Of a DNA stretch of 64,000 bases, positions 1,327-43,631 are shown in pieces. Each line of letters opens with the position of its first letter. Position 1 is the first letter of the stretch. The notes beneath the pieces are model-generated. The model was not told where the DNA came from, searched no databases, and was given only the letters and a program-made list of their open reading frames with translations. Location: positions 147,795 to 211,794 of the forward strand of contig CAWCLR010000005.1 of assembly GCA_963796415.1 (NCBI GenBank), read 5' to 3'. The stretch comes from an uncultured Acidimicrobiales bacterium. Lineage in GTDB: Bacteria; Actinomycetota; Acidimicrobiia; Acidimicrobiales; VFJN01. A program made the position numbers and the translations under genes.

Positions 1327-1335
1327 CCACCCGCG

Positions 1336-2394: not shown

Positions 2395-2450
2395 CCGTCC
2401 CACGCCCGGCGAGGCTCCGCAGTACGACCGACCGGGCCGGGCCGCCCGCG

Positions 2451-4817: not shown

Positions 4818-4852
4818 GCGCCGGAATGTACGGCGCCTGCGGGCCCGGGCGC

Positions 4853-4869
4853 TCACCCGGACCGGGTGA
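4853..4869. promoter_or_regulatory. TCACCC-N5-GGGTGA palindrome, site 1 (between divergent genes)
   Basis: TCACCCggaccGGGTGA; TACATT 22 nt away on the - strand, CAGGCT 23 nt away on the + strand. Confidence 0.7.
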
Positions 4870-4906
4870 CTGCACGTCCGCGGAGTGCCTGGCAGGCTGG
4901 TCGCGC

Positions 4907-5891
4907 GTGACGGACACCGACACCCCCGACGCCGACGGCACCGACGCGGCCCCGCCCGACGGACCGCCCCCTACCCCGGGCGTGGTGTGGGTTCCGGGCG
5001 GCACGTTCCGGATGGGGTCCGACGACCACTATCCCGAGGAGGCCCCGGCGCACCTCGTGACCGTCCGTGGATTCTGGATGGACCGCTGCGCGGTGACCAA
5101 CGACGAGTTCGCCCGCTTCGTGCAGGAGACCGGGCACGTCACGATGGCCGAGCAGGTGCCCGAAGCCGCCGACTACCCGGGGGCGCTCCCCGAGATGCTG
5201 GTGGCGGCCTCGTCGGTGTTCCGCAAACCGGGCCGGCCGGTGTCGCTCGACGACCCCTACACGTGGTGGACGTGGGTGCCGGGCGCCGACTGGCGGCACC
5301 CACGCGGGCCGCAGAGCTCGATCCGCCGCCTCGGAGATCACCCGGTGGTGCATGTGGCCTGGGCCGACGTCGAGGCGTACGCCGCCTGGGCCGGCAAGGA
5401 TCTGCCGACCGAGGCCGAGTGGGAACGGGCGGCCCGGGGCGGCCTGGAGGCCGCCGAGTTCGTGTGGGGCGAGGAGCTCACGCCCGGCGGCCGCCACATG
5501 GCCAATGTGTGGCAGGGCGACTTCCCCAACCACAACACCAAGGCCGACGGGTGGGAGTACACGGCGCCGGCCAAGTCGTTCCCGCCCAACGGCTACGGGC
5601 TGTTCCAGATGACCGGCAACGTGTGGGAGTGGACGACCGACTGGTACCAGGACCACGCGGCCGCCGCCCCCCAGCCCACCTGCTGCGCGGTCGAGAACTC
5701 CGCGGGGCGGCACGCGGGAGTCGAGCACCGAGCCGGGCGACCCGGCGGCGGTCCCCCGCCGGGTCATGAAGGGCGGATCGCACCTGTGCGCCCCCAGCTA
5801 CTGCCGTCGCTACCGCCCGGCGGCCCGCATGGCCCAGGCGATCGACACCTCGACCTCGCACCTCGGATTCCGCTGCATCGTCCGCCCGTAG
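4907..5891 (+). CDS. Formylglycine-generating enzyme (SUMF1/FGE-sulfatase) family protein; one extra base at ~5699
   Basis: [32 protein letters not shown]. Removing T5699 restores ENPRGG...[24 protein letters not shown]...HLGFRC to TAG 5891. Confidence 0.85.
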
Positions 5892-5903
5892 CCCCGGCCG
5901 ACC

Positions 5904-6347
5904 TCACCCGGGCGGGAAGCGGGCGACCCACCGGCGCTGCCACGGGGTCTCGACGGCTCGGGGGTGGTGGTGGGCGCGGGTCCACGCGACGGCCTCGTCG
6001 GCCGGCAGGCCGGACAGCACGCAGAGGCAGGCGATCACCGTGCCGGTGCGGCCCACCCCGCCGCCGCACGCGACCTCGACCCGCTCGCCCGCGGCGGCCC
6101 GCGCGCCCAGGGCCTGGATGCGGTCGATCGCCAGGTCCCGGTCGCGGGGCAGCAGGAAGTCGGGCCAGTCGACCCAGTCGTGGGGCCACGTCAGCGCACC
6201 GTCGTGGCGCCGCCGCATCCGCCGACCGCCGAGGTAGAGGCCGTAGTCGGGGGGCGGGCCCGCGGGGCGCGGCGCACGCAGCCCGCGTCCTCGCACCGAC
6301 TCGCCGGAGGGCAGCTCGATCGCTCCTTCCAGTTGCGCGGTGGTCAT
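5904..6347 (-). CDS. Protein-tyrosine/dual-specificity phosphatase family protein
   Basis: CX5R loop ACGGGVGRTG, WPDF loop, AVETPWQ. Confidence 0.85.
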   Translation of the reverse strand: MTTAQLEGAIELPSGESVRGRGLRAPRPAGPPPDYGLYLGGRRMRRRHDGALTWPHDWVDWPDFLLPRDRDLAIDRIQALGARAAAGERVEVACGGGVGRTGTVIACLCVLSGLPADEAVAWTRAHHHPRAVETPWQRRWVARFPPG

Positions 6348-6392
6348 GCCGCATCGTGCCGGTTCCGCCCGCGCCGGGCCAACCGGCTGGCG

Positions 6393-8924: not shown

Positions 8925-9008
8925 CTGACCGTCTCCTCGGTGAGGGCGACCTCAGGGGAGTGACGTCACTGTCACCAAGGATGATGCCGTGCGCGGGTGA
9001 GACGCGCT

Positions 9009-9025
9009 TCACCCTGTGCGGGTGA
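9009..9025. promoter_or_regulatory. TCACCC-N5-GGGTGA palindrome, site 2 (upstream of the LuxR/MalT regulator)
   Basis: TCACCCtgtgcGGGTGA; CATCAT exactly 22 nt downstream on the - strand; extra GGGTGA half-sites at 8995-9000 and 9035-9040. Confidence 0.7.
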
Positions 9026-9092
9026 TACCGCACGGGGTGAGTTCTGGGGGCCGGCGTCGTTCAGGTGCTTGTCAGGTAGTCGCAGTCGCGCG

Positions 9093-9578
9093 TCAGTCTG
9101 CGAACACCTCCCGCAGCTTGCCCTCCTGCTCGCCCGAGAGGCTCGACTCGATCAGCTCGGGGCCTTGTCCCGCGAAGGCGTCGTGGACCCGGTCCAGCAC
9201 GGCGTCGCTCGACAACACGAACAGCGCCGACGTGCCGGGGGTGACCTTCGCCTTGACCGAGTCGATGAAGTCGTCGTCGATGCCGACGTCCGTGAGCGAT
9301 CCGCCGAGCGCGCCCGCGGCGGCGCCGACCGCCATGCCGAGCAGCGGGACGAAGAACAGCAACCCGAACAGCAGCCCCCAGAACGACCCGCTGAGGGCGC
9401 CCGCGCCTGCGAGGCTCTCGATCTGGCGCGTCCTCGGGCGCTTCTTGTCGGGCGGCCAGCTCACGGTGGCAGCGTCATGGATCGTGATGAGGTTCTGCTT
9501 GGACAGCGACACGAGCGTCTGCTCGGCGTGGTCCGCCCCGACCGGATCGTCGAACTTCCACACCGTGAGGGTCGCCAT
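9093..9578 (-). CDS. DUF1269-type membrane protein
   Basis: MATLTVWKFD, GALSGSFWGLLFGLLFFVP, LTDVGIDDDFI, PGTSALF; GAGGAG RBS. Confidence 0.85.
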   Translation of the reverse strand: MATLTVWKFDDPVGADHAEQTLVSLSKQNLITIHDAATVSWPPDKKRPRTRQIESLAGAGALSGSFWGLLFGLLFFVPLLGMAVGAAAGALGGSLTDVGIDDDFIDSVKAKVTPGTSALFVLSSDAVLDRVHDAFAGQGPELIESSLSGEQEGKLREVFAD

Positions 9579-9638
9579 CGCTGCTCCTCGGTCGCCGAAG
9601 CACCACGAGGAGCGTCACGCCGTCTGGCCCGTCCGCCA

Positions 9639-9655
9639 TCACCCCTCGGGGGTGA
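9639..9655. promoter_or_regulatory. TCACCC-N5-GGGTGA palindrome, site 3 (upstream of DUF1269 gene)
   Basis: TCACCCctcggGGGTGA; GACGCT exactly 22 nt downstream on the - strand. Confidence 0.7.
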
Positions 9656-10946
9656 CGGCGCGGCGCCGCCGGACGCGCCGGCCGGTCGGTGCGGCATGGC
9701 GGGCGGGACCGTCCCCGTCGTTCTCGCCGGTGCCCATTTCGGGCGCGTCGATGCCCGCGCCCCACCCCTGGTCGAGACCCCCGTCGCCGTGGTCGTGGCC
9801 GCGTAGGTCGTCCCCCGAGCCCAGGACGGCGGCGGCCAGCGCCGTCGTGATCGGCACCGACGCCACCAGGCCGATCGACCCGACCAGCATGCGCACGACC
9901 TCGACCGCGATCAGCTCGCTGGTCAGGAGGCGCCCGGCGGGCTGGTCGCCCTGCACGAAGAACAGCAGCAAGGGCAGCGACGCCCCGGCGTAGGCCAGCA
10001 CGAGCGTGTTGACCGTGGAGGCCACGTGATCGCGGCCGACCTTCGTCGCCTCGCGGTAGAGGAAGCGGCGCGACAGCCCGGGGTTGGCCCGCCGCAGGGC
10101 CGACACGATGGACACCTGGCTCACGGTCACGTCGTCGAGCACGCCGAGGGCACCGACGACGATGCCGGCGACGAGCAGGCCCCGCAGGTCGAGAGCCTCC
10201 GCGGTGACCCGCAGGGTCTGGGCCCGCCCGTCGGCGAGGCCGGACAGGTTGGTCGCCGCGGCCACGCCGAACGCCAGCGCGCTCGTGATCGCCAGGGCGG
10301 CGAGGGTGCCGGCCAGCGCCACGGTCGTCCCGGTGTTCACGCCGTGGGCCAGGTACAGCGCGATGAAGGCGATCAGAACCGTGGCCGCCAGGGCCACCGC
10401 CACGGCCGGCTCGTCGCGGAGCAGCGCGGGCACCAGGAACGCGAGCAGCACCGCCCCGCTGGCGGCCAGGCCGATCAGCGCCCGCACGCCCTGCCACCGG
10501 CCGAAGGCGATCACGACCACGACGAACAGCCCCAGCAACCACAGCATCGGGGTCTCGCGCTGGAAGTCGGCGAACGAGTAGCGGTAGCGCGGCGGGCTGG
10601 TGGCCACGTCGAGCAGCACGATGCCGTCGCCGCGGGCCAGCTCGGGGACGTCGAACTGGGTCGACCGCACCTCGAAGGTGATGTCGTCGCCCGCGTCGTC
10701 GCCCGAGGTCAGCTCGGCGCTCACCAGCTGGCAGGGCCCGGGTGCGTCGATCTCTGGGTCCTGGCACGAGTCGGTGTCGATGCCGGTCACGGTGGCGTCG
10801 ACGTAGGTGTTGGGCTGGGTCCCGAGGTCGGGCGCATCGCCACGCGGCCAGAAGGCGATCGTCCCCAGCACAGCCAGCGCTCCGGCGATCACGACCACCA
10901 GCGTGAGCACCCGGGCCGACCGGCGGGTCGGGCCGTCCTGGGGCAT
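9639..10946 (-). CDS. YibE/F family membrane protein
   Basis: FADFQRE, GALGVLDDVTVSQ, GRDHVASTVNTLVLAYAG motifs; ATG 10946 preceded by GGAGG. Confidence 0.85.
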   Translation of the reverse strand: MPQDGPTRRSARVLTLVVVIAGALAVLGTIAFWPRGDAPDLGTQPNTYVDATVTGIDTDSCQDPEIDAPGPCQLVSAELTSGDDAGDDITFEVRSTQFDVPELARGDGIVLLDVATSPPRYRYSFADFQRETPMLWLLGLFVVVVIAFGRWQGVRALIGLAASGAVLLAFLVPALLRDEPAVAVALAATVLIAFIALYLAHGVNTGTTVALAGTLAALAITSALAFGVAAATNLSGLADGRAQTLRVTAEALDLRGLLVAGIVVGALGVLDDVTVSQVSIVSALRRANPGLSRRFLYREATKVGRDHVASTVNTLVLAYAGASLPLLLFFVQGDQPAGRLLTSELIAVEVVRMLVGSIGLVASVPITTALAAAVLGSGDDLRGHDHGDGGLDQGWGAGIDAPEMGTGENDGDGPARHAAPTGRRVRRRRAVTPEG

Positions 10947-22970: not shown

Positions 22971-23640
22971 GTGAGACGATCGATCCGGGACGCTCGACTG
23001 ATCGTCCAGAAGCAGTTCGTCCACAAGATCGTGCAGAAGTTCGTCGAGGAGATCGCCCAGGAGGTCGCCCGTGGGGTCCAGGCCGCGCAAGCCGTCCGCC
23101 ACCCGCGACCGTTCCGCCCGGCCGCCCGGCCGCCCCGCCGCGCCGATCGCCCCCGCGGGCGCCTCGGTGGGGTCGGGTCGGTCCCACGGGAGCCGGCCCC
23201 GACCCGCGGCCATCGACCTGACGGGCCCGTCGAGCGCGGCGGTCGTGACCCTGGCCGACTGGGCCCCGGCCGCGGCGCGCGTGGCGCCGGCGGGCAAGGG
23301 CAAGGCGAAGGCCGCGGCGAAGGCAGCGAAGAAGGCAGCGAAGAAGGCCGCCAAGGCCGCGGCGAAGGCAGCGAAGAAGGCCGCGAAGTCGCAGCGGAGC
23401 AAGAAGGCGAAGGCCGCGAGGAAGGCCGAGGCGAAGGCCGCCAAGTCGGGCAAGAAGGGCAAGAGGGGCAAGGCCGGGGCGGAGCGGGGCAAGAAGGCGC
23501 GGCGGCCAGGAGCGGCCAACTCGGCCGTCGTTGCGCTGGCGGACGGGAACGACGGCGGGACGAAGAAGGCCAGAAAGGCCAAGGCCGAGCAGGCCGCGGG
23601 CGGCGGGGTGGCAAAGCCGACGAAGGGCGAGGTCCGACAG
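22971..23640 (+). CDS. Lys/Ala-rich (histone-H1-like) coding segment upstream of and in frame with E1; probable frameshift at ~23100-23205
   Basis: Coding-like GC3 in frame VRRSIRDARLIVQKQFVHKIVQKFVEEIAQE switches to frame AAIDLTG...KAAKKAAKK; no stop before ATG 23641. Confidence 0.4.
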
Positions 23641-25815
23641 ATGGACACGAAGAACCCCAACCTCGACGATCCGGCGTCGATCCCCGTTGCCGCGTCGGCG
23701 ACGGCGGTGGATGCCGTCCCGGCCTCCGCCGACCGTCCCGACGACATCGGCGCCTACCCGGCCGACGAGCTGCGGCGTGACCTGCTCCTCGCCCGCGTCT
23801 CCCGAGCCATCGACGACCGCGAGATCGCCCTGCAGAAGCAGAGCCGGGTGTTCTTCCAGATCTCGGGCGCCGGCCACGAGGCCCTGCTGCTCGGACTCGC
23901 CCACGAGCTGCGGCCGGGCCACGACTGGTTCTTCCCGTACTACCGCGACCTCGCCCTCATGCTGGGGCTCGGCATCTCCGCCGAGCAGATCCTGCTGCAG
24001 GCGGTCGGCTCGGCCGAGGATCCGGCGTCGGGCGGCCGCCAGATGCCGGCGCACTGGGGCGACCGCGACCGCAACGTCGTGACGCAGTCGAGCCCGACGG
24101 GCAGCCAGTGCATTCCGGCCGTCGGCTGCGCCGAGGCCGGCCGCTACATCGTCCGCCGGCCCCAGCTCGGCCTGCCCGCCCACGGCGACGAGGTCACCTA
24201 CGTGAGCCTGGGCGAGGGCGCCACGTCCGAGGGTGAGTTCTGGGAGAGCCTCAACACCGCCTGCACCGAGCACCTGCCGGTGCTGTTCCTGGTGGCCGAC
24301 AACGGCTACGCCATCTCGGTTCCGTCGGCCGAGCAGTCGCCGGCGCCGATCAGCGAGCTGGTGAAGGGGTTCGCCGGCCTGCAGACCTGGACGGTCGACG
24401 GCACCGACTACTTCGATGTGCGCCGGACCGCCAAGGCGGTGGTGAGCCACGTGCGGGCGGGCGTCGGGCCGGCGCTGATCCACGCCACGGTGACACGTCC
24501 GTACTCCCACTCGGCGGCCGACACGCAGAGCAAGTACCGCCTGCCCCACGAGCTCGAGTGGGAGGCCCGGAACGACCCCATCGAGCGCCTCGAGGCCGCC
24601 CTCGTGGCGGGCGGGGTGCTCACCGCGGACGAAGCGGCGGAGCTGCGGGAGGAGGCCCGCCGCACCGTGGCCGAGGCCGCCAAGGCCGCCCTCGCCCGAG
24701 CCCGCCCCGACACGGCCTCCGTGCTCGATCACGTGGTGGCACTGCCCGACATCCCCGACCCGGGCGAGGCCGCCACCGGCCCCGACGGCGAGGACGTGGT
24801 GGCGCTCGGCGAGGCGATCCGCCGGACCCTGCACGAGGCCATGGAGGCCGACGAGCGCATCCGCGTGTTCGGCGAGGACGTGGCCGACGCCCGCGAGGCG
24901 ATCCTCGCTGACGTCGAGGGCAAGGGCGGCGTGTTCGGCACCACCCACGGCCTGCAGCGCGACTTCGGCCGAGCCCGGTGCTACAACACGCCGCTCGCCG
25001 AGGCCAACATCATCGGCCGGGCGGTGGGCCAGGCGATCCGCGGGCTGCGGCCGGCGCCCGAGATCCAGTTCTTCGACTACATCTGGCCTGCGATGCAGCA
25101 GATCCGCAGCGAGGCGGCGACGATCCGCTGGCGGTCGAACGGGGCGTTCACGTGCCCGACGGTCATGCGGGTCCCCATCGGCGGCTACCTGCAGGGCGGA
25201 TCGATCTGGCACAGCCAGTCGGGCGAGTCGATCTTCGCCCACATCCCCGGCCTGCTCATCGCCTATCCGTCGCGGGCCAGCGACGCCGCCGGCCTGCTGC
25301 GGGCGGCGTTCCGGTGCGAGGACCCGGTGCTGTTCCTCGAGCACAAGCACCTGCTCCGCCAGCCGTACACCCGCGACCCGTTCCCGGGGGCGGACTTCGT
25401 CCTGCCCTTCGGCCGGGGCCGGTATGTCACCCGAGGGACCGACCTGACGATCGTGACCTGGGGGGCGACCGTCGAGCGGTCCCGCAAGGCGGCCGCGCAG
25501 CTCGCCGAGACCGACGGCGCCTCGATCGAGGTGATCGACCTGCGGACGCTCGTGCCCTGGGACCAGGAGATGGTGGCCGAGTCGGTGGCGAAGACGTCGC
25601 GGCTGCTCGTGGTGCACGAGGACGTCGTGCGGGCCGGGTTCGGCGGCGAGATCGCGGCGTGGGTGGCAGACCAGGCGTTCTGGCAGCTCGACGCCCCGAT
25701 CGGCCGGGTCGGCGCCCAGGAGTGCCACGTGGCCTACGCCCCCGAGCTCGAGGACGCGATCCTCCCCCAGGTCGACGACATCGCCACGGCCGCCCACCGC
25801 CTGCTCTGCGAGTGA
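23641..25815 (+). CDS. 2-oxoacid (probably branched-chain) dehydrogenase E1, fused alpha/beta subunits
   Basis: GAGHEA, PYYRD, GEGATSEG...DNGYAIS TPP motif, FGEDV, NTPLAE, EIQFFDY, EVIDLR; GAGG before ATG 23641. Confidence 0.9.
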   Translation: MDTKNPNLDDPASIPVAASATAVDAVPASADRPDDIGAYPADELRRDLLLARVSRAIDDREIALQKQSRVFFQISGAGHEALLLGLAHELRPGHDWFFPYYRDLALMLGLGISAEQILLQAVGSAEDPASGGRQMPAHWGDRDRNVVTQSSPTGSQCIPAVGCAEAGRYIVRRPQLGLPAHGDEVTYVSLGEGATSEGEFWESLNTACTEHLPVLFLVADNGYAISVPSAEQSPAPISELVKGFAGLQTWTVDGTDYFDVRRTAKAVVSHVRAGVGPALIHATVTRPYSHSAADTQSKYRLPHELEWEARNDPIERLEAALVAGGVLTADEAAELREEARRTVAEAAKAALARARPDTASVLDHVVALPDIPDPGEAATGPDGEDVVALGEAIRRTLHEAMEADERIRVFGEDVADAREAILADVEGKGGVFGTTHGLQRDFGRARCYNTPLAEANIIGRAVGQAIRGLRPAPEIQFFDYIWPAMQQIRSEAATIRWRSNGAFTCPTVMRVPIGGYLQGGSIWHSQSGESIFAHIPGLLIAYPSRASDAAGLLRAAFRCEDPVLFLEHKHLLRQPYTRDPFPGADFVLPFGRGRYVTRGTDLTIVTWGATVERSRKAAAQLAETDGASIEVIDLRTLVPWDQEMVAESVAKTSRLLVVHEDVVRAGFGGEIAAWVADQAFWQLDAPIGRVGAQECHVAYAPELEDAILPQVDDIATAAHRLLCE

Positions 25816-34539: not shown

Positions 34540-35571
34540 GTGATCGAGGTCGTCGAGGTGCGGAGCGGCGACGGTCCGGAGATGAACGGCCTGCTGGCCG
34601 TGTGGCGGGCGGTCGACGAGGTGCTCGAGCCCGACGATCCGCCCATGCCCCTCCAGGAGCTGCGCGGCGACCTGTTCGGCATCCCCGCCCACAAGCGCCG
34701 GCGCGTGTGGCTGGCCACCATCGACGGCGAGCCCGCCGGCCTGGCCCACACCGACCAGGACCTCGACGGCGTCAACGAGGCCACCATCGAGGTCTACGCC
34801 ATCGTCCACCCCGAGCGGCGGCGGCGCGGCCTCGGCCGGGCCCTCCTCCGGGCTGCGCTTCCCCGCGTCGTGGCGGACGGCGGCACGTCGCTGCTCGGCT
34901 GGACGCTCGACGACGCCGGCGTGGCCCTGTGCCGCCGGCTGGGCCTGACCCACCGGTCCGACGACCGGTGCAGCCGCGTGCGCGTCGTGGACGTCGACCC
35001 CGACCAGCAGCGGCGCTGGATCGACGACGCCCCCGGCCGGGCCGCCGGCTACCGCCTCGTCGGGTGGGTGGGGGTGTGCCCCGACGAGTGGGCCGAGGGC
35101 CTGGCCGCCGCCCTGGCCGCCATGATCGACGCTCCGCTCGACGACATCGACTGGGATCCGCAGGTGCTCCCGCCCTCCCAGCTCCAGGCCCGCGAGCGCG
35201 GGTGGGACGGCGAGGGGTTCGACATCGTGACCACCCTGGCGCTGGCGCCCGACGGCTCGGCGGCCGGCGCCAGCCAGCTCCTGGCCTCGCGCCTGCGGCC
35301 GTACGTCGGCCGCCAGGCAGACACCGGGGTCGTGGCGTCCCACCGCGGCCATGGCCTGGGGCGCTGGATGAAGGCCGAGAACCTGCGCCGGGCGCTCGCC
35401 CACCAGCCCGGCATCGCCGTGATCGAGACCTACAACGCCGAGTCGAACCCGCACATGCTGGCGATCAACGTCGAGATGGGCTTCCGGCCGCACCGCGCCT
35501 TCAGCACGTGGCAGGGCCCGGTCGACGGCGCCGCGAGGGCATTGGGCCTCGACCTCGTCAGGTATGGCTGA
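34540..35571 (+). CDS. Tandem GNAT acetyltransferase
   Basis: VHPERRRRGLG and TGV..SHRGHGLG motifs, T.NAESN.HMLAIN..MGF. Confidence 0.85.
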   Translation: MIEVVEVRSGDGPEMNGLLAVWRAVDEVLEPDDPPMPLQELRGDLFGIPAHKRRRVWLATIDGEPAGLAHTDQDLDGVNEATIEVYAIVHPERRRRGLGRALLRAALPRVVADGGTSLLGWTLDDAGVALCRRLGLTHRSDDRCSRVRVVDVDPDQQRRWIDDAPGRAAGYRLVGWVGVCPDEWAEGLAAALAAMIDAPLDDIDWDPQVLPPSQLQARERGWDGEGFDIVTTLALAPDGSAAGASQLLASRLRPYVGRQADTGVVASHRGHGLGRWMKAENLRRALAHQPGIAVIETYNAESNPHMLAINVEMGFRPHRAFSTWQGPVDGAARALGLDLVRYG

Positions 35572-35691
35572 TCTGCCTGGACGAGGACGGCTGATCCGCG
35601 GCGAAGGCACTGGCCATCCAGGGTTTTCCTGGTAGCCCCTCACTCTGCGCAGTTATAGTGACACGCAGTCGCGCGGAAGGCGGGACGGGCG

Positions 35692-36936
35692 GTGGACGAG
35701 TGGGCGACACGCGGGGCGCTGGGGGCGACCCGGCAACCGCTTCGCGGGCGCCCGGCGCCCCCGCAGCCGCGGATCCTGCTCGTCACCGGCAAGGGTGGGA
35801 CCGGCAAGACGACGATGGCCGCGGCCACCGCGCTGCTGACCGCCGACCGCGGTGCACGAACCCTGGTGGTGTCCACGGACGCTGCGCACTCCCTCGGCGA
35901 TGCGCTCGGGTGCGCGGTCGGGGGCGATCCGACACCGGTCACGCCGACGCTCAGCGCCCAGGAGATCGATGCGCAGCAGCTGTTCGACCGCTCCTGGTCG
36001 ACGGTGCGGACCTACCTGCAGGACCTGCTCGAATGGGCGGGCGCCGACAGCGTCCGCGCCGAGGAACTGGCGGTGGTCCCTGGCCTCGACGAGCTGCTCG
36101 CGCTGCGCACCATCGCCGAGCACGCGCTGGGCGAGTGGGATGCGGTGATCGTCGACTGCGCCCCGACCGCCGAGACCGTTCGTCTCCTGGCCCTCCCCTC
36201 GACGCTGCGGACATACCTCGACCGTGTGCTCCCCGCTCATCGGCGCCTCGCCCGCTCGGTGGCGCCCGTCCTGCGTCGGGCCACGTCGATGCCCCCGGCG
36301 CCCGCGGGCGTCCTCGACAGCGTGCTCGAGCTGACCGACGAGCTCGGGCGACTCCACGACACGCTCGCGGACCCGCGGGTCGCCTCGATCCGGCTCGTGA
36401 CCACGCCCGAGTCGATGGTGGTGTCGGAGACCCGGCGGGTCTGGTCCTACCTGGGGCTCTTCGGTTTCAACGTCGATTCGGTCCTGGTGAACCGCGTCGT
36501 GCCGGACGGCACGACCGACCCCTGGCTCGGCCGCCTCCACCAGGCGCAGCAGCCCCATCTCGCCGCCATCGAGCAGCTCTTCGTCGACCTCGGCCGGGCT
36601 CGGGCGCCGATCCGTCCCGGCGAGGTGACGGGCATCGAAGAGCTGCGCTCGTTCGGCGCCGAGATCTACGGCGTGCACGATCCCCTGGACTGGCCGGCCC
36701 CCGCGCCGGCAACCGACTCCCGGGCCGACGGCGCGCTCGCCGGGCACGTCCTCACCCTCCCGCTCCCCGGTGCCGAAGGCGGCGAGGTGCGTCTCGCTCG
36801 CTCGGGGGCGGTGATGTTCATCACCGTCGGGCCGTACCGCCGGTCCCTCCCGTTGCCGCCGCATCTGCGCGGGCGGGTGGCCACGGACGCTCGGGTGGCG
36901 AACGGCCAGCTCGAGGTGGAGTTCGCCGGGTCATGA
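35692..36936 (+). CDS. ArsA/Get3 family ATPase with C-terminal HSP20-like domain (Get3d-like)
   Basis: GKGGTGKTT, STDAAHSL, PGLDE, DCAPTAET; C-terminal LTLPLP..VGPYRRSLPLP..LEVEF; TATAGT -10 at 35654. Confidence 0.85.
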   Translation: MDEWATRGALGATRQPLRGRPAPPQPRILLVTGKGGTGKTTMAAATALLTADRGARTLVVSTDAAHSLGDALGCAVGGDPTPVTPTLSAQEIDAQQLFDRSWSTVRTYLQDLLEWAGADSVRAEELAVVPGLDELLALRTIAEHALGEWDAVIVDCAPTAETVRLLALPSTLRTYLDRVLPAHRRLARSVAPVLRRATSMPPAPAGVLDSVLELTDELGRLHDTLADPRVASIRLVTTPESMVVSETRRVWSYLGLFGFNVDSVLVNRVVPDGTTDPWLGRLHQAQQPHLAAIEQLFVDLGRARAPIRPGEVTGIEELRSFGAEIYGVHDPLDWPAPAPATDSRADGALAGHVLTLPLPGAEGGEVRLARSGAVMFITVGPYRRSLPLPPHLRGRVATDARVANGQLEVEFAGS

Positions 36937-37220
36937 GAGACCCACGGCGTCCGCCCGGTCACCCCATGGTCGAGATGGCCTACGACCTTCGGGTCGCGGT
37001 CGACCGGGCGCTGTCGGACGACGCCGAGCTGACGGTGCCCCGCGCGGAGGTCTATCGCCGGTTGCACGAGACGCTGCGTTCGGCGCGCCGGCTCGTCGAC
37101 GCGCTCGACGAGCTCGTGGACGGGCTCGAGAGGCAGTCGAGGGAGGAGCCGGGGGAACGAACACCCGAGGACGGGAGGCAAGATGACGACTTCCAGATCA
37201 TCCGGATCAGCAGTCCCTGA
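36933..37220 (+). CDS. Small helical hypothetical protein coupled to the ArsA gene
   Basis: ATGA overlap at 36933-36936; 95 aa, amphipathic helix, acidic linker, C-terminal FQIIRIS. Confidence 0.65.
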   Translation: MRDPRRPPGHPMVEMAYDLRVAVDRALSDDAELTVPRAEVYRRLHETLRSARRLVDALDELVDGLERQSREEPGERTPEDGRQDDDFQIIRISSP

Positions 37221-38577
37221 CACGGTCGGCACGGCCGTCGGACTGCCGTCGTACGAGGGCGTCCTCGCCGACGTGCCGGGCATCGACCGGATCCAGGACA
37301 CCGTCGACCTCGCCGCCGTGGACCCCCAAGACGCGAACTTCGAGATCCTCGCGGGGTACTTCTACCTCTCTCAGGCGCTGGGCCGGCTGCTTCACTCGGA
37401 CATCGGGGTCCCCGAGAACGCCACGTTCCTGACCTTCGCCGCCTGGGCGACCGAGAGCCTGCGGCCGGACATCGTGCGGTCGGTCGACGGCACCGTCCCA
37501 CGAATCTCGCCCTCCGGTGCCGGCCTCCGACCCGCCCGCAGGGCGTACAGGTGGTTGGCAAGAGAAGCCCTCGGCAGCGACGACGCGGTGGTCCGCAACA
37601 TCGTTCACGGCGAAGGAACGGTGTACGAGGAGATCGCCACCACGACCCATCACCTTCTGAGACACTCGCTGGAGGCGATCGAGGCTTTCGGGCCGGGGCC
37701 GCTGTCCGACGACGAGCTGTCGGACACGTGGACGGCGTACTCCACGAGACTCGAGGACGCGGCCACGACCATCAACGGTCGTCGCACGAACGACCAGCTC
37801 GACGAGACGGACGTGTTTCTCCTTCAGCGTGCCGTGCAGCCGTACTTCGAGGTCATCGCCAAGGGACTGTCCTGGCCGGATCTGGGCGAGGAGGACAGGC
37901 GGCGCCGGGCGCAGCTCATCCTGCTGGCGAACGTCCGCCTCCTGGCGTACGAGCAGAAGCGGGTCCAGCCCGTCCTGCAGCGAAACCTCGCCTACCTGCC
38001 CGAAACCGTCCGGTCCTGGCTCGGCGGCGAGCTGATGGGGAGGAACACGCTCCTCGACCGCATGCTGCGCCTCGCCTACAAGCGCGCCGGCACGGCCGAG
38101 AGCAGCCTGCGGGAGATGTTCCAGATTGCTGCCACCCGAGGCATCTACTCGATGGTCCTCGGCACCGAGGAACTGCGGTTCGGTCGCGACCTTCCCATGC
38201 CGCCGCCGGCCAACCCTGTGCTGCGAGCTCGCCAGCCGGAGCAGGACAGGAAGCGGTACGGCTCGGGAGCGTTCTTCCCGTACCACCTCGAGAACCTGCA
38301 ATGGCGGCCGGTGTGGGCCGAGGTTCAGCGTCACGACCGGTCCAGCGGCGAGGGTGCCCGCACCGCTGTCGACAACTGGCTTCGGTACGGAGAGCGCCTC
38401 AACTTCCTGGTCAACCTGTTTCGGTCACGCCAGCAGGTCAGCACGTTGTACAACGCGCCCCGGTCGGCCCCGACGCTCCCCGTCGCGCTCGAGCCGGTGC
38501 AGCTCCTCCCGGGCCTGCCCCCTGTGCCACCGCTGGCACAACAGGCGCTGCCGCACTTCGATGGAGGGAACCCATGA
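37183..38577 (+). CDS. Uncharacterised 464-aa protein
   Basis: Long protein-like ORF within the operon; stop overlaps next ATG; start uncertain. Confidence 0.75.
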   Translation: MTTSRSSGSAVPDTVGTAVGLPSYEGVLADVPGIDRIQDTVDLAAVDPQDANFEILAGYFYLSQALGRLLHSDIGVPENATFLTFAAWATESLRPDIVRSVDGTVPRISPSGAGLRPARRAYRWLAREALGSDDAVVRNIVHGEGTVYEEIATTTHHLLRHSLEAIEAFGPGPLSDDELSDTWTAYSTRLEDAATTINGRRTNDQLDETDVFLLQRAVQPYFEVIAKGLSWPDLGEEDRRRRAQLILLANVRLLAYEQKRVQPVLQRNLAYLPETVRSWLGGELMGRNTLLDRMLRLAYKRAGTAESSLREMFQIAATRGIYSMVLGTEELRFGRDLPMPPPANPVLRARQPEQDRKRYGSGAFFPYHLENLQWRPVWAEVQRHDRSSGEGARTAVDNWLRYGERLNFLVNLFRSRQQVSTLYNAPRSAPTLPVALEPVQLLPGLPPVPPLAQQALPHFDGGNP

Positions 38578-39923
38578 GCGCCCCACTCCTGGACGACGAC
38601 ATCCTGCGCCAACTGGCCCGTGCGGCCGACCCGGACGCCGACCAGGTCGTCGCCGACATCGTGACCTCGCTTCGCCCTCGGCCAGGGCGATCCCAACTGG
38701 GAGGCGCGCCGCGTGCCGCCTACCCCAAGCTCATGGGCGCAGATCGGGAGTGACGACGAGGCCGCGCCGGTCGCGCCCTTCCTCCGGCAAGGAAAGGACA
38801 TCGACGACCTGATCCAGCCCGAGCTCGTGCATCGCGCACAGGAGTTCTTCGAGGAGCACGGCGTTGCGGTCATCACCAGCCTCTTCCTCGCGTCACTGCC
38901 CCAGGCCTACCTCGGGCGCCGCGGGGTGCAGACGCTCGACATGACCGGCGAGCTGGTCGCCAACTGGAGCCGGCGCATCCAGGAGACGGGCCAGTTCCTG
39001 GTCAACGTCCTGACCCGGGATCCGACGATGGCCGAGACGGACAGGACCACCCTCCACCACGGTGAGATCGGGGCCCGCGTGGTGCGTCGGGTGCGCCTCA
39101 CCCACGCCGCAGTCAGATGGCTGCTGAAGGCCCGGTACGACCCGAAGCTCCGGAGCCTGGCCTGCGAGAACCTCCCGGAGCCGAAGACGCTGTGGCATCT
39201 CCGGATGACGCAGATCTGCGAGCCGGGCGGGGCCGATCTGAGCGAGCCGTTGAACCAGGAGGATCTGCTCGCAACGCTCGGGACCTTCACGACGGTCGTC
39301 TTCCGGGCACTCGACAAGCTGGCGGTGCCCTTCGACGAGGAGCACCGGAAGGCCTACCACCACCTGTGGAACATCGTGGGATGGCACCTCGGCATCGGCG
39401 ACGACGCCGCCCTCGCCGCGGTCCCCACCGGCCTCAGCGATCGCTGGCCGAACAACAGAATCCTCCCCCTGGAGGTCAACGAGATGGACACCCTGTTCGA
39501 GCGGCTCCAGAGTCTCCTCGAGGGGGAGACCGAGCAGGGCCGGCGCCTCGCCAAGACGCTCGTGCAGGACTTCTCGTACCCGTTGCCTCGACCGATGCAG
39601 GGGGCACCCGCGTTCATCGTTCGCTATCTCATCGGCGACGATGCGGCCGACAAGTTGGACATCACCGGTGGCGGATACGTCGGGCTGGTGGCGCGACGCA
39701 CCGGGGCGCTCGAACGGCTCGCTCAGCAGACCCGGATGAGCGTCTTCGGCGAATACGTGCTGTCCGCCGTGGCGCAGATGCTGACCCGCTACGCGCTGCG
39801 CAACTTCGTCCGCGGTCGCGGGAGAGCACCCGCGGGTTCACGATCGATCCGCACACCGCAAGCAGGTGGGGAGTCGAGACCGGCCCGGAGCTGCTGATCC
39901 AGGAGTCGCGTGCCCGACTGTGA
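38574..39923 (+). CDS. MpaB/Lcp (DUF2236)-type oxygenase; frameshifts at ~38670-38740 and ~39812
   Basis: ADPDADQVV N-terminus, SLPQAY, RRIQETGQF, VRLTHAAVR (heme His), PLNQEDLLATL..F, HLWNIVGWHLGI; C-terminal FTIDP..RWG in the shifted frame. Confidence 0.8.
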
Positions 39924-39953
39924 GCGCCACAGTCCGGGTCACCTCTCCGGCGT

Positions 39954-42900
39954 TCACGCCGGGGCGGGCGATGCCGCGTGCATGTCGGCGAGTGACCGGG
40001 CGGCGAGCACCACCGCCTCGGGCCGGGTGAGCCGCGCTCCGGCTTCGCTGGCTGCAGCGAACGCGTGTGCACCGAGCCGCTCACTGAGGACCACGCCGAG
40101 ATCGCTCGCATGGGCACGGTCGATCGGAAGCGACGGCATCACCAGTTGGGCCTGCTCTGCCCTGGCCAGCAGGCGAACCGCGGTCTCGTCGTCGCCGAGA
40201 AGGCCGAGACACATCGCCGATTCACGGATCGTGTGCCACAGCTGCGGCCTGTCGCCCAGCCGGTCCCAGTGGACGAGCAGGTCGAGCAAGAGCGGGACGG
40301 CCTCCTGGGGACGGTCGAGTCGTCGCCGGAGCGTGGCCAGCCGTGACATCGAGAGACCGAGCACGAGCGGGCTGTCGGCGCCCCGGGCGGCGTCGACGCT
40401 CGCTGCGAGCGCGACCTCGGCACGCGTGGGGTCCGGCTGCTCGGTCGCGGTCGCCACCGCGAACAAGGCGTGCGCGACTGCCGTCGGGGATCCCGACTGG
40501 GAGGCCATGTCGAGGGCGCGGTTCGCCAGCGACATCGCTCGCTCGTGTCCGCCGCTGATGACCATGCCGAGCGAACCGGTGGCCAGGCTGAAAACGAGCC
40601 AGTAGGGATCGCCCAACTCCTTGCTCCACGCGACGATCTCGAGGAAGCGATCGGGGGCCTGCGCCTCCATCGGCCCGAGCGCCGGGTCGCCGATGCGCGG
40701 CGCGTACGCGGTCGCGAAGATGATCGCCATGCGGGCGGGGAGTCTCACGCCGGTGCCCAGTCGTTGCTCCGCGTCGAACGCGGCCTGGCAGGCCGTCAGG
40801 CACTGGCCGAGGTCGCCCCGGAGCCATGCGCCGAGCGCGGCGATGCCGTGGAGGTCGGGCAGCAAGGGACAATCCTCGAACGACAGCCGGTCGAACGCCT
40901 CGTCGACCCAGCGGAAGTACTCGGCCGACAGCCGCTGAAGGCCGAAGTTCCACAACGCCATGAGCAGCTGCGCGTCGAGGTCGACGTCGGCGTTGTCGAC
41001 CGCCCACAGATGGGCGGCGCGCAGGTTGCCGAAGTCGGCGGCGATCCGTCGCGCCCACGTGGCCTCGTCAGCCGTTCGCAGACCGGCTTCGGCCCTCTCG
41101 GCGAGGTCGCGGTAGAGGACCGCGTGTCGCGACCGCACCTTGGCCGTCCCTTCAGCGCCGGCCAATCGGTCGGCTGCGAAGTCACGCAGGGTCGAGAGCA
41201 TCCGGTAGCGGGTCTCGCCGGCGCCGAGATCGGCGACGATCATCGACCGGTCGGCGAGATCGGCGAGCAGCGACAGCACGTCCTCGGCACTGTGGTCGTC
41301 ACCGCAGATGGCGCACGCCGCCCCGACCGTCCACCCACCCGAGAACACTGACAACCGGTCGAAGAGTGAACGCGTCTCGGCGGGAAGCAGGTCGTAGGAC
41401 CACTGCACCGTGCTCAGCAGGGTGCGATGCCGTGGATGATCCGGCACCTGCGTGGCCAGGAGAGGTGACGTCGTGTGCATGTGCGCCAGCAGGTCCCGCA
41501 GGCCGATCGATCGCGCCCTCCCGGCGGCGAGCTCGAGTGCGAGGGGTATGCCGTCCAGCCGCCGGCAGATCTCGGCGACGACGTCGACTTCCGCCGGCTC
41601 GGCCTGCCGGCCGCCCCGCGCGGCTGCTGCTCGATCGGCGAACAGACGGACCGCCGGCGACGCCCCGAGCGCGTCGCCGTCGCCGGTCGGCAGGCCGAGC
41701 GGCTCGACGCGGAAGATCACCTCGCCCGGGAAGCCGAGCGTCTGCCGACTCGTGGAGACGACCGTCAGCTGTGGGCTTGCCTCGAGTGCCTCGCGGACCA
41801 GGTGACCCACCGGCTCCACGACGTGCTCGCAATTGTCCATGACGAGCAGGAGGTGCTTGTTTCCGAGCCAGTCGACCACACTGGCACGGAACGACCGCTC
41901 CCCGCGGCGCACCAATCCCAGACCCTCTGCGACGGCCGCGGGGACGGCGTCGCCATGGATCGGCGCCAGGTCGATGACCCGGGCCCCGTCTCGGAAGCGG
42001 TGGGCCGTCTCGGCGACGAGCTCGACAGCGAGCCTGGTCTTCCCGACCCCGCCCGGCCCGACGAGGGTCACAGCCCCGGGCCGAGCCACCAGCTCGCTCA
42101 GGCGGGTGAGCTCGTCCTCCCGTCCGTGGAAGCTGGTCGCGGGCACGGTCACCGCCGAGGCGGCGTCGAGCGTGCGGAGCGGGGGGAAGCGCTCCTGCAG
42201 ACCGGCGTGCCGCACCTGGTGGACGCGGTGGTCGCCGGGGATCCCCCGCAGCCGGTGGACGCCCGCGAGGACGAGCGAGATGTCCTCGGGCAGCTCGGGG
42301 ATGGCTTGGACCGCTGCGTCCGACACCAGTGTCTGCCCTCCGTGACCTGCGTCTCGCAGCCGGGCGGTCATGTTGGGGGCCATGCCGTAGTAGTCGCCGT
42401 CGCGCTCGATGGCCGACCCGAAGTGGATCCCCATCCTCGCCCGCACCGGCAGTGGCGTCGGCCACGCCGTGCCGGCGAGCGCGAGTTGGGCGGCCACGGC
42501 CGCGTGCAGCGCACCGACAGCCTCGGGGAACGCGGCGGTCACGCCGTCGCCCGTCCGCTTCAAGACGGTGCCACCGTGCCGGGCGACCGCATCGTCGAGG
42601 ATCGCGTCGTGCGCCTCCAGGGCACCTGCCATGGTTTCGGGGAAGTCCGCCCACAGGCGGGTGCTCTCCTCGATGTCGGTGAAGAGGAAGGTGAGTTCGG
42701 GGTCCCGCTCCAGGGTCACCTCGCCTCGCTCGGCCCGGAACACGAGCGTCGGGTCGTGGTCGAGGATCCGGCGCTCGAGGTCGGCGAGCTCACGCCCGGG
42801 CTCGATGCCCACGTCCTGCGCGAGGTTGCTGCGGGCCCGTTGGTAGGCCCGCAGGGCGTCGCTCTGCCGGCCGCTCCGGTACAACGCCAGCATGAGCTGC

Positions 42901-43472
42901 GCCCACAACCCCTCGTCGAGGGGATGAAGGTCAACCAGAGGTTCCAATGCAGAGACCGCGTCGGCGGCACGACCCAGAGCCAGGAGCGCGTCGTGGCGAC
43001 GTTTCAGCGCATCCAAGCGGATGGCGTCGAGTCGCCTGGCCTCTCGGTCCGCCCACCCGACGCCCGCGAACTCGGCCAGCGGTGGTCCGCGCCACCAAGC
43101 GAGCGCCACATCGAGCCCGGCCAGCCGACGTGCGGGCTCGGGGATCCGACTGGCCACGGACACGGCGCGCTCGAATCGCTGGGCATCGACGTCTGTGGGA
43201 GCGATCTCGAGCGCGTAGCCGCCAGGACGAGTCTCGAGGCGAGCGCCATCCTCGAGGAGCTTGCGAAGCTGGGACACGTAGGTCTGGACCGTGCGGTTCG
43301 CGCCGTCCGGGGCCTGCTCACCCCACAGCTCGTGCACCAGGAGGTCGGTGCTCAGCGCGTGGCCCGCGTGGACGACCAAGCAGGCCAGGAGCCCGCGCCG
43401 CTTTGGTCCACGAACGGAGAGCTGTCCACCCGTTCCGACGACTTCGAACGTACCGAGGATCCGGAACTCCAT
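39954..43472 (-). CDS. AfsR/SARP-type regulator: wHTH + BTAD + class III nucleotide cyclase + NB-ARC-like NTPase + TPR
   Basis: MEFRILG, VQTYVSQLRK, HPLDE..LMLALYRSGRQ, FLFTDIEEST, KRTGDG, GPGGVGKT, DNCEH, LDGIPLALELAA. Confidence 0.9.
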   Translation of the reverse strand: MEFRILGTFEVVGTGGQLSVRGPKRRGLLACLVVHAGHALSTDLLVHELWGEQAPDGANRTVQTYVSQLRKLLEDGARLETRPGGYALEIAPTDVDAQRFERAVSVASRIPEPARRLAGLDVALAWWRGPPLAEFAGVGWADREARRLDAIRLDALKRRHDALLALGRAADAVSALEPLVDLHPLDEGLWAQLMLALYRSGRQSDALRAYQRARSNLAQDVGIEPGRELADLERRILDHDPTLVFRAERGEVTLERDPELTFLFTDIEESTRLWADFPETMAGALEAHDAILDDAVARHGGTVLKRTGDGVTAAFPEAVGALHAAVAAQLALAGTAWPTPLPVRARMGIHFGSAIERDGDYYGMAPNMTARLRDAGHGGQTLVSDAAVQAIPELPEDISLVLAGVHRLRGIPGDHRVHQVRHAGLQERFPPLRTLDAASAVTVPATSFHGREDELTRLSELVARPGAVTLVGPGGVGKTRLAVELVAETAHRFRDGARVIDLAPIHGDAVPAAVAEGLGLVRRGERSFRASVVDWLGNKHLLLVMDNCEHVVEPVGHLVREALEASPQLTVVSTSRQTLGFPGEVIFRVEPLGLPTGDGDALGASPAVRLFADRAAAARGGRQAEPAEVDVVAEICRRLDGIPLALELAAGRARSIGLRDLLAHMHTTSPLLATQVPDHPRHRTLLSTVQWSYDLLPAETRSLFDRLSVFSGGWTVGAACAICGDDHSAEDVLSLLADLADRSMIVADLGAGETRYRMLSTLRDFAADRLAGAEGTAKVRSRHAVLYRDLAERAEAGLRTADEATWARRIAADFGNLRAAHLWAVDNADVDLDAQLLMALWNFGLQRLSAEYFRWVDEAFDRLSFEDCPLLPDLHGIAALGAWLRGDLGQCLTACQAAFDAEQRLGTGVRLPARMAIIFATAYAPRIGDPALGPMEAQAPDRFLEIVAWSKELGDPYWLVFSLATGSLGMVISGGHERAMSLANRALDMASQSGSPTAVAHALFAVATATEQPDPTRAEVALAASVDAARGADSPLVLGLSMSRLATLRRRLDRPQEAVPLLLDLLVHWDRLGDRPQLWHTIRESAMCLGLLGDDETAVRLLARAEQAQLVMPSLPIDRAHASDLGVVLSERLGAHAFAAASEAGARLTRPEAVVLAARSLADMHAASPAPA

Positions 43473-43631
43473 ACCCACCCGTCCCGTGGGCCCGGTGCGT
43501 GAGCAGGGGGCCCGCCGACGCGGATCGTACCGTGTCACCACCGGTGTGGTCGCCTGAGTTACGGGGGCGCGCGGCGTCTCCCGCGCCGCATGGTGCGGCA
43601 CGGGAGGCGCCTTCGAGCTCGCCGCCCGGTG

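Follow-up and report, generated by a model that had tools for sequence, protein, structure and literature searches.

A rare gene module of Acidimicrobiia that joins a predicted Lcp-fold haem protein and its helical partner to a cyclase-STAND regulator, with an optional Get3-type ATPase

We analyzed a 64,000-nucleotide (nt) stretch of DNA from an uncultured Acidimicrobiales bacterium (contig CAWCLR010000005.1, positions 147,795–211,794 of the forward strand), hereafter the window, which carries a cluster of four overlapping genes, g1–g4, and a regulator gene convergent with g4. The initial annotation, made from the letters of the window, centred on the first gene, a Get3/ArsA-type ATPase, and missed the regulator, which is the most constant neighbour of the cluster. 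Comparison with related loci gives a different centre of gravity: the invariant core of the module is g3 and g4 together with the regulator, not the ATPase.

Organization and distribution of the module

The features of the locus are the following (positions are those of the window; aa, amino acids).

35630–35659, plus strand: promoter-like site, TGGTAG at 35630–35635, an 18-nt spacer and TATAGT at 35654–35659
35692–36936, plus strand: g1, Get3/ArsA-family ATPase with a C-terminal alpha-crystallin (HSP20-like) domain, 414 aa; cluster-specific paralogue, assigned by Pfam, TIGR00345 and motifs
36933–37220, plus strand: g2, acidic, predicted helical protein, 95 aa; no family, always directly behind g1
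37183–38577, plus strand: g3, predicted all-helical protein, 464 aa; no Pfam or NCBIfam model, partner of g4
38574–39923, plus strand: g4, Lcp/MpaB-type (DUF2236) predicted haem-b protein, ~450 aa when read through four small insertions or deletions (indels)
39954–43601, minus strand: regulator with an OmpR-type winged helix-turn-helix, BTAD (SARP), class III adenylate cyclase, STAND ATPase and tetratricopeptide repeats (TPRs), assigned by Pfam

The stop codon of g1 (TGA, 36934–36936) and the ATG of g2 at 36933 form an ATGA junction, a second such junction is formed by the stop codon of g3 (TGA, 38575–38577) and the ATG of g4 at 38574, and g2 and g3 overlap by 38 nt. These coordinates, together with the four co-directional genes and the TATAGT hexamer, confirm what the initial annotation had described. 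Judging by the gene overlaps only, g1–g4 are presumably co-transcribed; the ATGA coupling between g1 and g2 is kept in all five loci checked. Codon-position GC (guanine plus cytosine) content follows a coding pattern in each gene (.82/.48/.87 in g2). The start codon of g1 is uncertain, the first GTG of the frame being preceded by GGAAGG 10 nt upstream, and for the regulator ATG 43472 is a likelier start than GTG 43601.

We identified 19 distinct orthologous loci, 11 of them genomic (the window, L011, L012, L013, L014, L016, L018, L019, L020, L021 and L022) and eight from metagenome contigs (L027–L034, among which L027–L029 look like near-copies of each other). The titles of the related records refer to Acidimicrobiia or Acidimicrobiales genomes assembled from metagenomes. 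Genes g3 and g4 are adjacent in all 18 loci that can be assessed (L034 ends inside g3), and a homologue of the regulator adjoins them in 17 of 17 (L031 and L034 end too early). One or both of g1 and g2 lie upstream of g3-g4 in 13 of 17 loci, L030 and L033 being impossible to judge, and neither is present within 7 kb in L016, L019, L020 and L021. In the four genomes that lack a g1-g2 locus, whose completeness is not given, genome-wide searches found neither an ArsA homologue (E <= 1e-40) nor g2 (E <= 0.01), whereas a control genome has both. The pair thus does not need the ATPase.

The recurrence of the same gene set in other genomes and metagenome contigs indicates that the cluster is more than a chance arrangement, and bears out the expectation that the combination would be conserved. 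As judged by these comparisons of predicted genes, it is a genuine accessory module carried by actinobacteria of the Acidimicrobiia type. The module appears rare and patchy and is probably mobile: cluster-type g1 (75–80% identity), g2 and g3 are shared by the same three of 28 genomes of the genus, and a g3 orthologue (E <= 1e-20) occurs in two of 401 genomes drawn evenly from the class. GC content is 0.69–0.71 over positions 36001–40000 and 0.75–0.77 in the 6 kb upstream, and the lower value over the cluster is in line with an acquired module. Literature searches retrieved no paper describing the cluster, which the initial annotation had also called undescribed, nor one describing the pairing of a cyclase-STAND regulator with DUF2236 and g3-like proteins. 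A preprint on cytochrome P422 names DUF2236 a single time and does not bear on the module.

More distant arrangements extend the comparison. A second full module lies in the same genome on contig 8 (L011, 139000–151000), with ArsA, g2, g3 and g4 at ~3898–8110 of the locus and the regulator at 577–3875; its proteins are 42–84% identical to those of the window, and its ArsA and g4 align in several frame pieces. Locus L064 (G006 contig 110, 43500–55000) holds a divergent module at 3652–10696, all on one strand and 27–41% identical, which comprises an ATPase with ArsA_ATPase and ArsA_HSP20 domains, a 103-aa open reading frame (ORF), g3', an MPAB_Lcp_cat protein (g4') and a cyclase-STAND-TPR gene; this divergent full set strengthens the link between the ATPase and g3-g4. 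The 103-aa ORF was considered as a g2 homologue and rejected (hhalign probability 0.08). Other members of the genus carry a distant pair, 26–31% identical, in the reversed order g4' then g3', and in L065 and L066 the order is regulator, g4', g3', with no ATPase. Among the ATPase-less loci, L019 and L021 have an MFS transporter gene directly upstream of the g3 region (L019 5296–6510; L021 5204–6421), and in L019 an unnamed 147-aa frame (6446–6889) lies directly upstream of g3.

The g3-g4 pair and its regulator

The middle frame of g4 matches the Pfam family MPAB_Lcp_cat (PF09995) with an E value of 3.1e-13 and 50.7 bits (cut-off 23), the intact orthologue of L012 scores 55 bits, and the genome of the window also holds a canonical DUF2236 copy with a score of 224 bits. 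A profile built from seven intact orthologues matches the Lcp structures 5O1M (4.7e-7) and 5O1L (6e-7), placing the g4 sequence RLTHAAVRW on the Lcp sequence RMVHAAVRH that holds His198, the proximal haem ligand, which is reported to show 100% conservation across 495 Lcps (PMC5522427, Ilcu et al. 2017). The codon for the putative proximal haem His of g4 is CAC at 39103–39105, and this residue is kept in 18 of 18 sequences, which include the middle piece from the window as well as orthologues, distant paralogues and fusions. Upstream of it, by 39–43 residues and within 38971–38997, lies an R-x-x-E-T motif, the R and T of which are present in all 18 sequences and the E in 16. The assignment to the Lcp/MpaB-type haem proteins made in the initial annotation is therefore supported by the Pfam score, the profile match and the conserved His.

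The fold was assessed on a model of P0047, a natural g3-g4 fusion and thus a homologue rather than the window protein itself. Residues 452–853 of this model superimpose on Lcp 5O1M with a Z score of 25.9 and a root-mean-square deviation (rmsd) of 3.9 over 330 residues, and the C-terminal domain superimposes on t-anethole oxygenase 8S1J with a Z score of 16.9 over 255 residues. No membrane or signal segment was found in g1–g4, where the highest 19-residue hydropathy is 1.56. The g4 orthologues lack a hydrophobic N-terminus, their peak 19-residue hydropathy of 1.3–1.6 being internal and their N-termini acidic, and this lack of membrane and signal segments predicts a cytoplasmic location for g4. 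We conclude that g4 belongs to a divergent branch of Lcp-fold proteins and is full-length and, by prediction, cytoplasmic.

With the latex clearing protein LcpK30 (5O1L/5O1M), a rubber oxygenase, g4 has in common the fold, as judged on the fused homologue, and the proximal haem His, upstream of which lies an R-x-x-x-T motif. It differs in that (i) it lacks a secretion signal, Lcp being a secreted enzyme that acts on extracellular polyisoprene; (ii) the identity is ~19%; (iii) it is paired with an extra domain of ~400 aa, g3, which is absent in Lcp; and (iv) it stands beside a cyclase-STAND regulator and not beside rubber catabolism genes. The DUF2236 fold is also common to t-anethole oxygenase 8S1J, Nro1 and the class of Purwani et al. 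The t-anethole oxygenase/Nro1 class consists of single proteins of ~300–320 aa, whereas g4 has ~450 aa and an Lcp-like N-terminal extension. MpaB-type bacterial enzymes are described as b-type haem proteins that act on C=C bonds (PMC12724181). Haem-b-dependent cleavage of such bonds is known for Lcp, for MpaB of fungi, for Nro1 of Gordonia and for the class of Purwani et al. 2024, as cited in PMC12724181.

No Pfam or NCBIfam model matches g3 of the window, and relaxed Pfam scans of 31 orthologues were equally negative. A search of 5.8 billion proteins yields 46 clusters of close relatives, all without a name, and a profile of the 31 orthologues collects 675 representatives at E <= 0.001 among 1.84 billion proteins. 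Pfam scans of 44 of these representatives revealed eight fusions (774–876 aa) in which a g3-like N-terminal half is joined to an MPAB_Lcp_cat C-terminal half, and NCBI labels two such fusions 'oxygenase MpaB family protein'. Two further proteins, P0175 (671 aa) and P0176 (684 aa), carry two cyclic-nucleotide (cNMP)-binding domains ahead of a g3-like C-terminal domain, in P0165 (985 aa) TPRs are joined to such a domain, one protein contains DUF7507, and 32 are without a Pfam domain. The cNMP and TPR fusions hint that the g3-like domain may be an output regulated by cyclic AMP (cAMP). In L016, g3 and g4 lie within one open frame, and L043 is a remote g3-g4 fusion; a scan of 66 proteins encoded at 23 loci next to remote g3-like genes that stand alone found no recurrent partner except in L043. 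On the strength of the constant adjacency and the fusions, we propose that g3 and g4 act as one unit.

A model of g3 alone, with a mean predicted local distance difference test (pLDDT) score of 65, is all-helical and confident over residues 20–270, but the highly conserved C-terminal half is poorly modelled, its blocks having means of 29–48. In the P0047 fusion (pLDDT 82.0, predicted template modelling score 0.75) the stretch matching this half scores 80–96 and only the linker, residues 415–445, is disordered. The higher scores in the fusion suggest that the conserved C-terminal half of g3 packs on g4. We found no known fold for g3: the g3-alone model has no Foldseek match at E <= 0.001 and reaches a Z score of 6.3 at best in a wide VIA search, against designed or generic helix bundles, the N-terminal domain of P0047 reaches at most 4.1 with VIA, and a sequence-profile search of the PDB gave no match. 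Nor is g3 detectably related to g4, as judged by an hhalign probability of 0.4 and by the lack of any MPAB match in the relaxed scans of the 31 orthologues, so that the 'enzyme pair' of the initial annotation is at most a putative one. In a language-model atlas the clusters nearest to g3 are MPAB clusters at 0.82–0.83, below the atlas line of 0.9 and to be taken as a lead only. The family DUF2515 (PF10720) was rejected for g3, with matches in none of the 31 orthologues; four of 22 diverse g3-like proteins match it weakly (best E 0.0026, below the 24.3-bit cut-off).

The regulator matches BTAD (1.3e-38, 133.1 bits) and Trans_reg_C (1e-10, 41.9 bits) above their Pfam cut-offs, Guanylate_cyc (PF00211) with 9.1e-9 and 35.6 bits (cut-off 21.9), and in addition TPR_12 and AAA. 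Against the AfsR equivalog it scores 156.9 bits (cut-off 1430), and its NCBIfam matches, to AfsR and to a LipJ cyclase, are partial; with BTAD and Trans_reg_C above and the AfsR equivalog below cut-off, it is a SARP-type protein and not AfsR itself. The winged helix, BTAD, class III cyclase, STAND and TPR parts are shared with AfsR/SARP and with cyclase-ATPase-TPR regulators; the distance from the AfsR equivalog and the fixed pairing with DUF2236 and g3-like proteins set it apart. Class III cyclases rely on a metal-binding Asp pair, a Lys-Asp specificity pair and an Asn-Arg transition-state pair. The motifs FTDIEEST, KRTGDG, DYYG and NMTAR are present in the window regulator.

The association of regulator and pair extends beyond the orthologous loci. 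A homologue also lies beside distant g3-g4 paralogues and beside a fused form, and paralogues of 33–37% identity adjoin nine of 12 weak g3-like places in the genus, where the family is strongly expanded, with matches at E <= 1e-60 in 26 of the 28 genomes and as many as seven in a single genome. In L019, L021 and L064 a same-strand regulator frame starts before or directly behind the end of the g4 frame, in L065 and L066 the regulator directly precedes g4' on the same strand, and L016 has a cNMP-binding protein next door. Together, the regulator pairing, the cNMP-binding fusions and the L016 neighbour tie the pair to cAMP signalling.

The ATPase g1 and the small protein g2

In g1, one ATPase domain (ArsA_ATPase, PF02374; 3.6e-69, 233.8 bits, cut-off 24.3) is followed by an HSP20-like tail (ArsA_HSP20, PF17886; 3e-15, 56 bits, cut-off 22.5), the architecture that the initial annotation had read from the sequence, and TIGR00345 (212.6 bits, cut-off 135) places the protein in the TRC40/GET3/ArsA subfamily. 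Using published motif definitions (deviant, intradimeric Walker A GKGGxGK[ST], switches, A-loop; PMC10248533), we located GKGGTGKT at 35788–35811, STDAAHS at 35872–35892, DCAPTAET at 36154–36177 and RPGEVTG at 36613–36633. The deviant Walker A, the switch I Asp and the A-loop-like RPGEVTG are present and conserved in six of six aligned sequences, and switch II is the variant DCAPTAET as opposed to DTAPTGHT. The protein has two Cys and no CXXC, and its client-binding region is Arg-rich with a single Met in residues 90–230.

These properties recall the bacterial alpha-crystallin Get3 homologues (Get3d; Farkas et al. 2019), which likewise combine a single ATPase domain and tail with a deviant Walker A and no CXXC. 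The review of Farkas et al. (PMC6593721) records such homologues in numerous bacterial phyla, Actinobacteria among them, points out that the actinobacterial ones have few or no Met, and prefers to see these proteins as general chaperones; the single Met of the g1 client region fits its low-Met description. The assignment to the 'Get3d type' in the initial annotation is supported at the level of domain architecture; at the level of sequence, g1 scores 137 bits against the NosAFP (Get3d) equivalog NF050088 (cut-off 325), and its nearest solved structure is the archaeal Get3 3ZQ6 (4.5e-40), followed by NosGet3d 3IGF (5.5e-26) and AtGet3d 8ELF (1.1e-11). In the Get3d paper (PMC10248533), possession of an alpha-crystallin tail is taken to characterize a clade linked to photosynthesis. 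Like BagA/BagB (Rv3679/Rv3680, M. tuberculosis, 6BS3), g1 is an actinobacterial Get3-like ATPase not linked to arsenic; NCBIfam and PDB matches show a distant kinship between them (E 6e-10 and 2.4e-7; 48 bits, with equivalog cut-offs of 400–521). BagAB of Mycobacterium tuberculosis has a protective role; its two subunits, encoded by separate ATPase genes, form a heterodimer and lack the alpha-crystallin tail.

A second ArsA-HSP20 protein, 45–47% identical to g1, occurs genus-wide, in 20 of 28 genomes. In the tree, cluster-type g1 and this paralogue form separate clades, each with 100/99 support, and the L064 ATPase lies on a long branch (1.74) that has no firm place relative to the cluster-type clade. 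It is thus the separate clade tied to g2-g3-g4, and not the genus-wide copy, that g1 belongs to, which distinguishes it from other bacterial Get3 homologues. A copy of the genus-wide paralogue, 46% identical to g1, was seen in G000 on contig 9 (L023, 6226–7554, minus strand); it is flanked by an SRPBCC/polyketide-cyclase-like gene (7675–8202) and a baeRF_family10 gene (4643–5869).

For g2, no Pfam, NCBIfam or PADLOC match and no usable atlas match was obtained, and PDB matches to designed helical proteins were rejected as chance level. Its homologues form 15 clusters, all unnamed, with M1, R6, P7, H10, P11, R20, L58, L65 and I90 invariant, and g2 occurs solely in places with a cluster-type g1. 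By its distribution across the loci, the g1-g2 pair is dedicated to the module yet dispensable.

Function of the module and alternative explanations

We propose that g3 and g4 form a cytoplasmic haem oxygenase of two subunits, which is coupled to a STAND regulator that makes cAMP and is equipped with an optional Get3-type chaperone pair, an explanation to which we give an even chance of being correct. It builds on what the sequences show directly, namely the gene content and its conservation, the g3-g4 fusions, the phyletic pattern, the haem-pocket residues and the fold of a homologue. At its core, g4 would bind haem b via the conserved His, g3 would be its helical partner, and the pair always stands beside the SARP-cyclase-STAND-TPR protein. 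As a haem-dependent dioxygenase, the two proteins would cleave a C=C bond of a hydrophobic cell metabolite, for example an isoprenoid or alkenyl-aromatic compound; haem binding, catalysis and substrate class are here predictions. The expression or activity of the pair would be tied to the neighbouring cAMP-producing regulator, a direction of signalling that we infer. As an optional add-on, g1 and g2 would most likely serve as a chaperone or holdase for g3-g4 or its hydrophobic ligand, a role for the ATPase that is likewise presumed.

Several observations weigh against this explanation. First, the equivalence of the R-x-x-E-T motif to R164-K167-T168 of Lcp rests on spacing and not on a printed alignment, and the position of the distal Lys167 is apparently Glu in 16 of 18 g4 sequences; in Lcp, Arg164 and Thr168 are reported to be required for activity, and Lys167, the distal ligand, to be only 59% conserved (PMC5522427). 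Second, the same paper describes Lcp as a 3/3 globin fold that resembles globin-coupled sensors. Third, g3 has no invariant His or Cys and no match to a known fold, which makes a catalytic role for it a guess, and the gain in pLDDT taken to indicate packing on g4 may stem from the different target and the deeper alignment (42 rows against 31). Fourth, the genomes of the genus are kin, so that the phyletic pattern represents few independent events. Finally, a cyclase-STAND gene that overlaps or abuts g4 or g3 on the same strand in many loci would suit a sensor-effector pair equally well.

This last point leads to the strongest alternative, which we consider rather unlikely, that g4 is a globin-like gas or redox sensor which, via g3, controls the cyclase-STAND-SARP protein, in the manner of H-NOX proteins and their neighbouring cyclases or kinases. 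Here cAMP and the SARP part would switch on a response, with the Get3-type chaperone and g2 as a stress output, and Get3 is indeed described as a holdase in yeast (PMC3613179). The regulator is the most constant neighbour and is co-duplicated with the pair, its frame lies at the end of g4 or directly before g4' in the five loci named above, its cyclase catalytic residues are kept, and g3-like domains occur fused to cNMP-binding and TPR domains, all of which a sensor would explain, as it would the globin-like fold. However, the residues corresponding to R164 and T168, needed for Lcp catalysis, are seemingly kept in 18 of 18 sequences, although they could equally serve ligand binding, and the characterised members of the fold (Lcp, MpaB, Nro1, t-anethole oxygenase) are all oxygenases.

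Returning to the haem oxygenase, an unlikely variant, the delivery model of the initial annotation taken strictly, gives the ATPase a more active part: at the expense of ATP, the Get3-type protein would deliver a client, either a hydrophobic small molecule or a protein, to g3-g4, with g2 as an adaptor. The dedicated g1 and g2 share the exact phyletic pattern of g3, the set recurs in the divergent L064, the nucleotide-binding motifs of g1 are complete, including the A-loop-like RPGEVTG, and the hydrophobic chamber in Get3d crystals is reported to have held density consistent with a phospholipid (PMC10248533). Delivery cannot, however, be obligatory, since four genomes keep g3-g4 and the regulator without an ArsA homologue or g2. 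The cluster contains no transmembrane or tail-anchor segment either, and the idea that one of its proteins is itself the Get3 client finds no hydrophobic segment in g1–g4 to build on. The Arg-rich client region with its single Met agrees better with the general chaperone role favoured in the review cited above (PMC6593721), and the small ORF of L064 is not homologous to g2.

A more speculative combination, which we regard as slightly less probable still, would have the Lcp-fold haem protein and g3 gate the SARP-cyclase-STAND-TPR protein through a lipid-derived aldehyde or ketone, or through O2 or redox state, with the Get3-type ATPase and its adaptor loading the ligand. If true, a Get3-family ATPase would for the first time have a client other than a protein, and the bacterial alpha-crystallin Get3 homologues would gain their first defined partner system.

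The g4 gene is interrupted in the window. It runs in frame c from 38574 to ~38670, briefly in frame a, in frame c to ~38738, in frame a to ~39810 and in frame c to the stop codon, with four small indels near 38671, 38713–38714, 38739–38741 and 39810. The final frame c reaches the stop at 39923, so the end coordinate given earlier is correct. Alignments with intact orthologues from L012 (7289–8704, 471 aa) and L014 (1474–2823, 449 aa) span the three frame pieces seen in the window, and most of the 82 g4 orthologue clusters of the protein collection have an unbroken frame of ~450 aa. We aligned short-read contigs of four public runs (X1, X2, X4 and X7, from four studies) to 38400–40000; they come from other samples and are 88–100% identical to the window. 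Every contig that bridges the four places has a frame-restoring length, with one letter out at 38671, two at 38713/38714 and one at 38739–38741, and a G in behind 39810, a net change of three letters and hence a multiple of three. One contig of 131 nt (38695–38828) matches the window fully apart from its frame-restoring gaps.

The possibility raised in the initial annotation that the oxygenase is truly frameshifted is thus countered by bridging contigs from four runs, and the frame breaks are very probably consensus (assembly) errors rather than signs of a dead gene, as far as sequence comparison can tell. The three frame pieces all keep coding GC at the third codon position (GC3,.84–.91), the only stop codons are those produced by the shifts, and similar single breaks in several related long-contig assemblies (L013, L021, L022) point to a general assembly problem. 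Two observations pull the other way. Contigs from other samples prove that an intact allele exists, not that the source strain has it. Moreover, all four indels fall within the 1.35 kb of g4, when no frame break was seen in g1, g2, g3 or the regulator, which align to orthologues in single pieces. That the cluster is a decaying, non-functional relic, redundant with the copy on contig 8, seems improbable to us, even though that second copy also aligns in several frame pieces (ArsA and g4).

Finally, the reading of g1 as an arsenite-pump ATPase for arsenic or antimony resistance, which has the Pfam family name ArsA_ATPase in its favour, is effectively refuted, in agreement with the initial annotation: g1 has a single domain of 414 aa with two Cys, where ArsA has two tandem ATPase halves, it falls far below the ArsA equivalogs (TIGR04291, 96.4 bits against 650; NF041417, 118 against 800), no arsB/ACR3, arsC, arsR or arsD family was found among the genes called at 27–53 kb of the window, and its constant partners are g2, g3 and g4.

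The finding is genomic, and its value lies in a well-defined target for expression, spectroscopy and pull-down, in which three poorly understood families meet in one conserved module. Neither a client nor a partner is known for the alpha-crystallin-tailed Get3 homologues of bacteria, and the dedicated paralogue described here offers a tractable route to their function. DUF2236 haem oxygenases are of interest as catalysts of biological ozonolysis, and g4 represents a branch with an obligatory partner domain of no known fold, a domain family with at least 675 representatives and no Pfam or NCBIfam model. The regulator pairing and the cNMP-g3 fusions, in turn, suggest an unstudied link between haem/alkene chemistry and cAMP signalling in actinobacteria.

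The surroundings of the cluster are high-GC DNA (0.69–0.79 in 2-kb bins across the window) on contig 5 of a 5.97-Mb, 20-contig assembly, and the genes called at 27–53 kb include FAD oxidases, GNAT, the regulator, Lon, MscS, a tRNA synthetase and a multicopper oxidase. A defence system was considered and rejected, as PADLOC has no match for g1, g2, g3 or g4; the cyclase has only a 17-bit match to PycC. The single tRNA call of the window is far from the cluster: ARAGORN places a tRNA-Val (gac) at 24875–24955 inside a long frame of high GC3 (23002–25812), either a false call or a miscalled ORF. A terminator scan returned two terminator-like sites (1.1 expected), both within coding sequence, and a strict consensus promoter scan returned none by its own rule, at TATAGT or elsewhere. 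The TATAGT hexamer upstream of g1 is nevertheless found at the equal aligned position in four of seven loci (the window, L012, L013 and L018), and in the window, L012 and L013 a TGGT(A/C)(G/A) hexamer precedes it by 17–18 nt. A direct repeat, GGCTGATC, occurs at 35566–35573 and 35589–35596; its two copies begin 23 nt apart, where the GNAT gene ends, and lie about 60–90 nt upstream of TATAGT.

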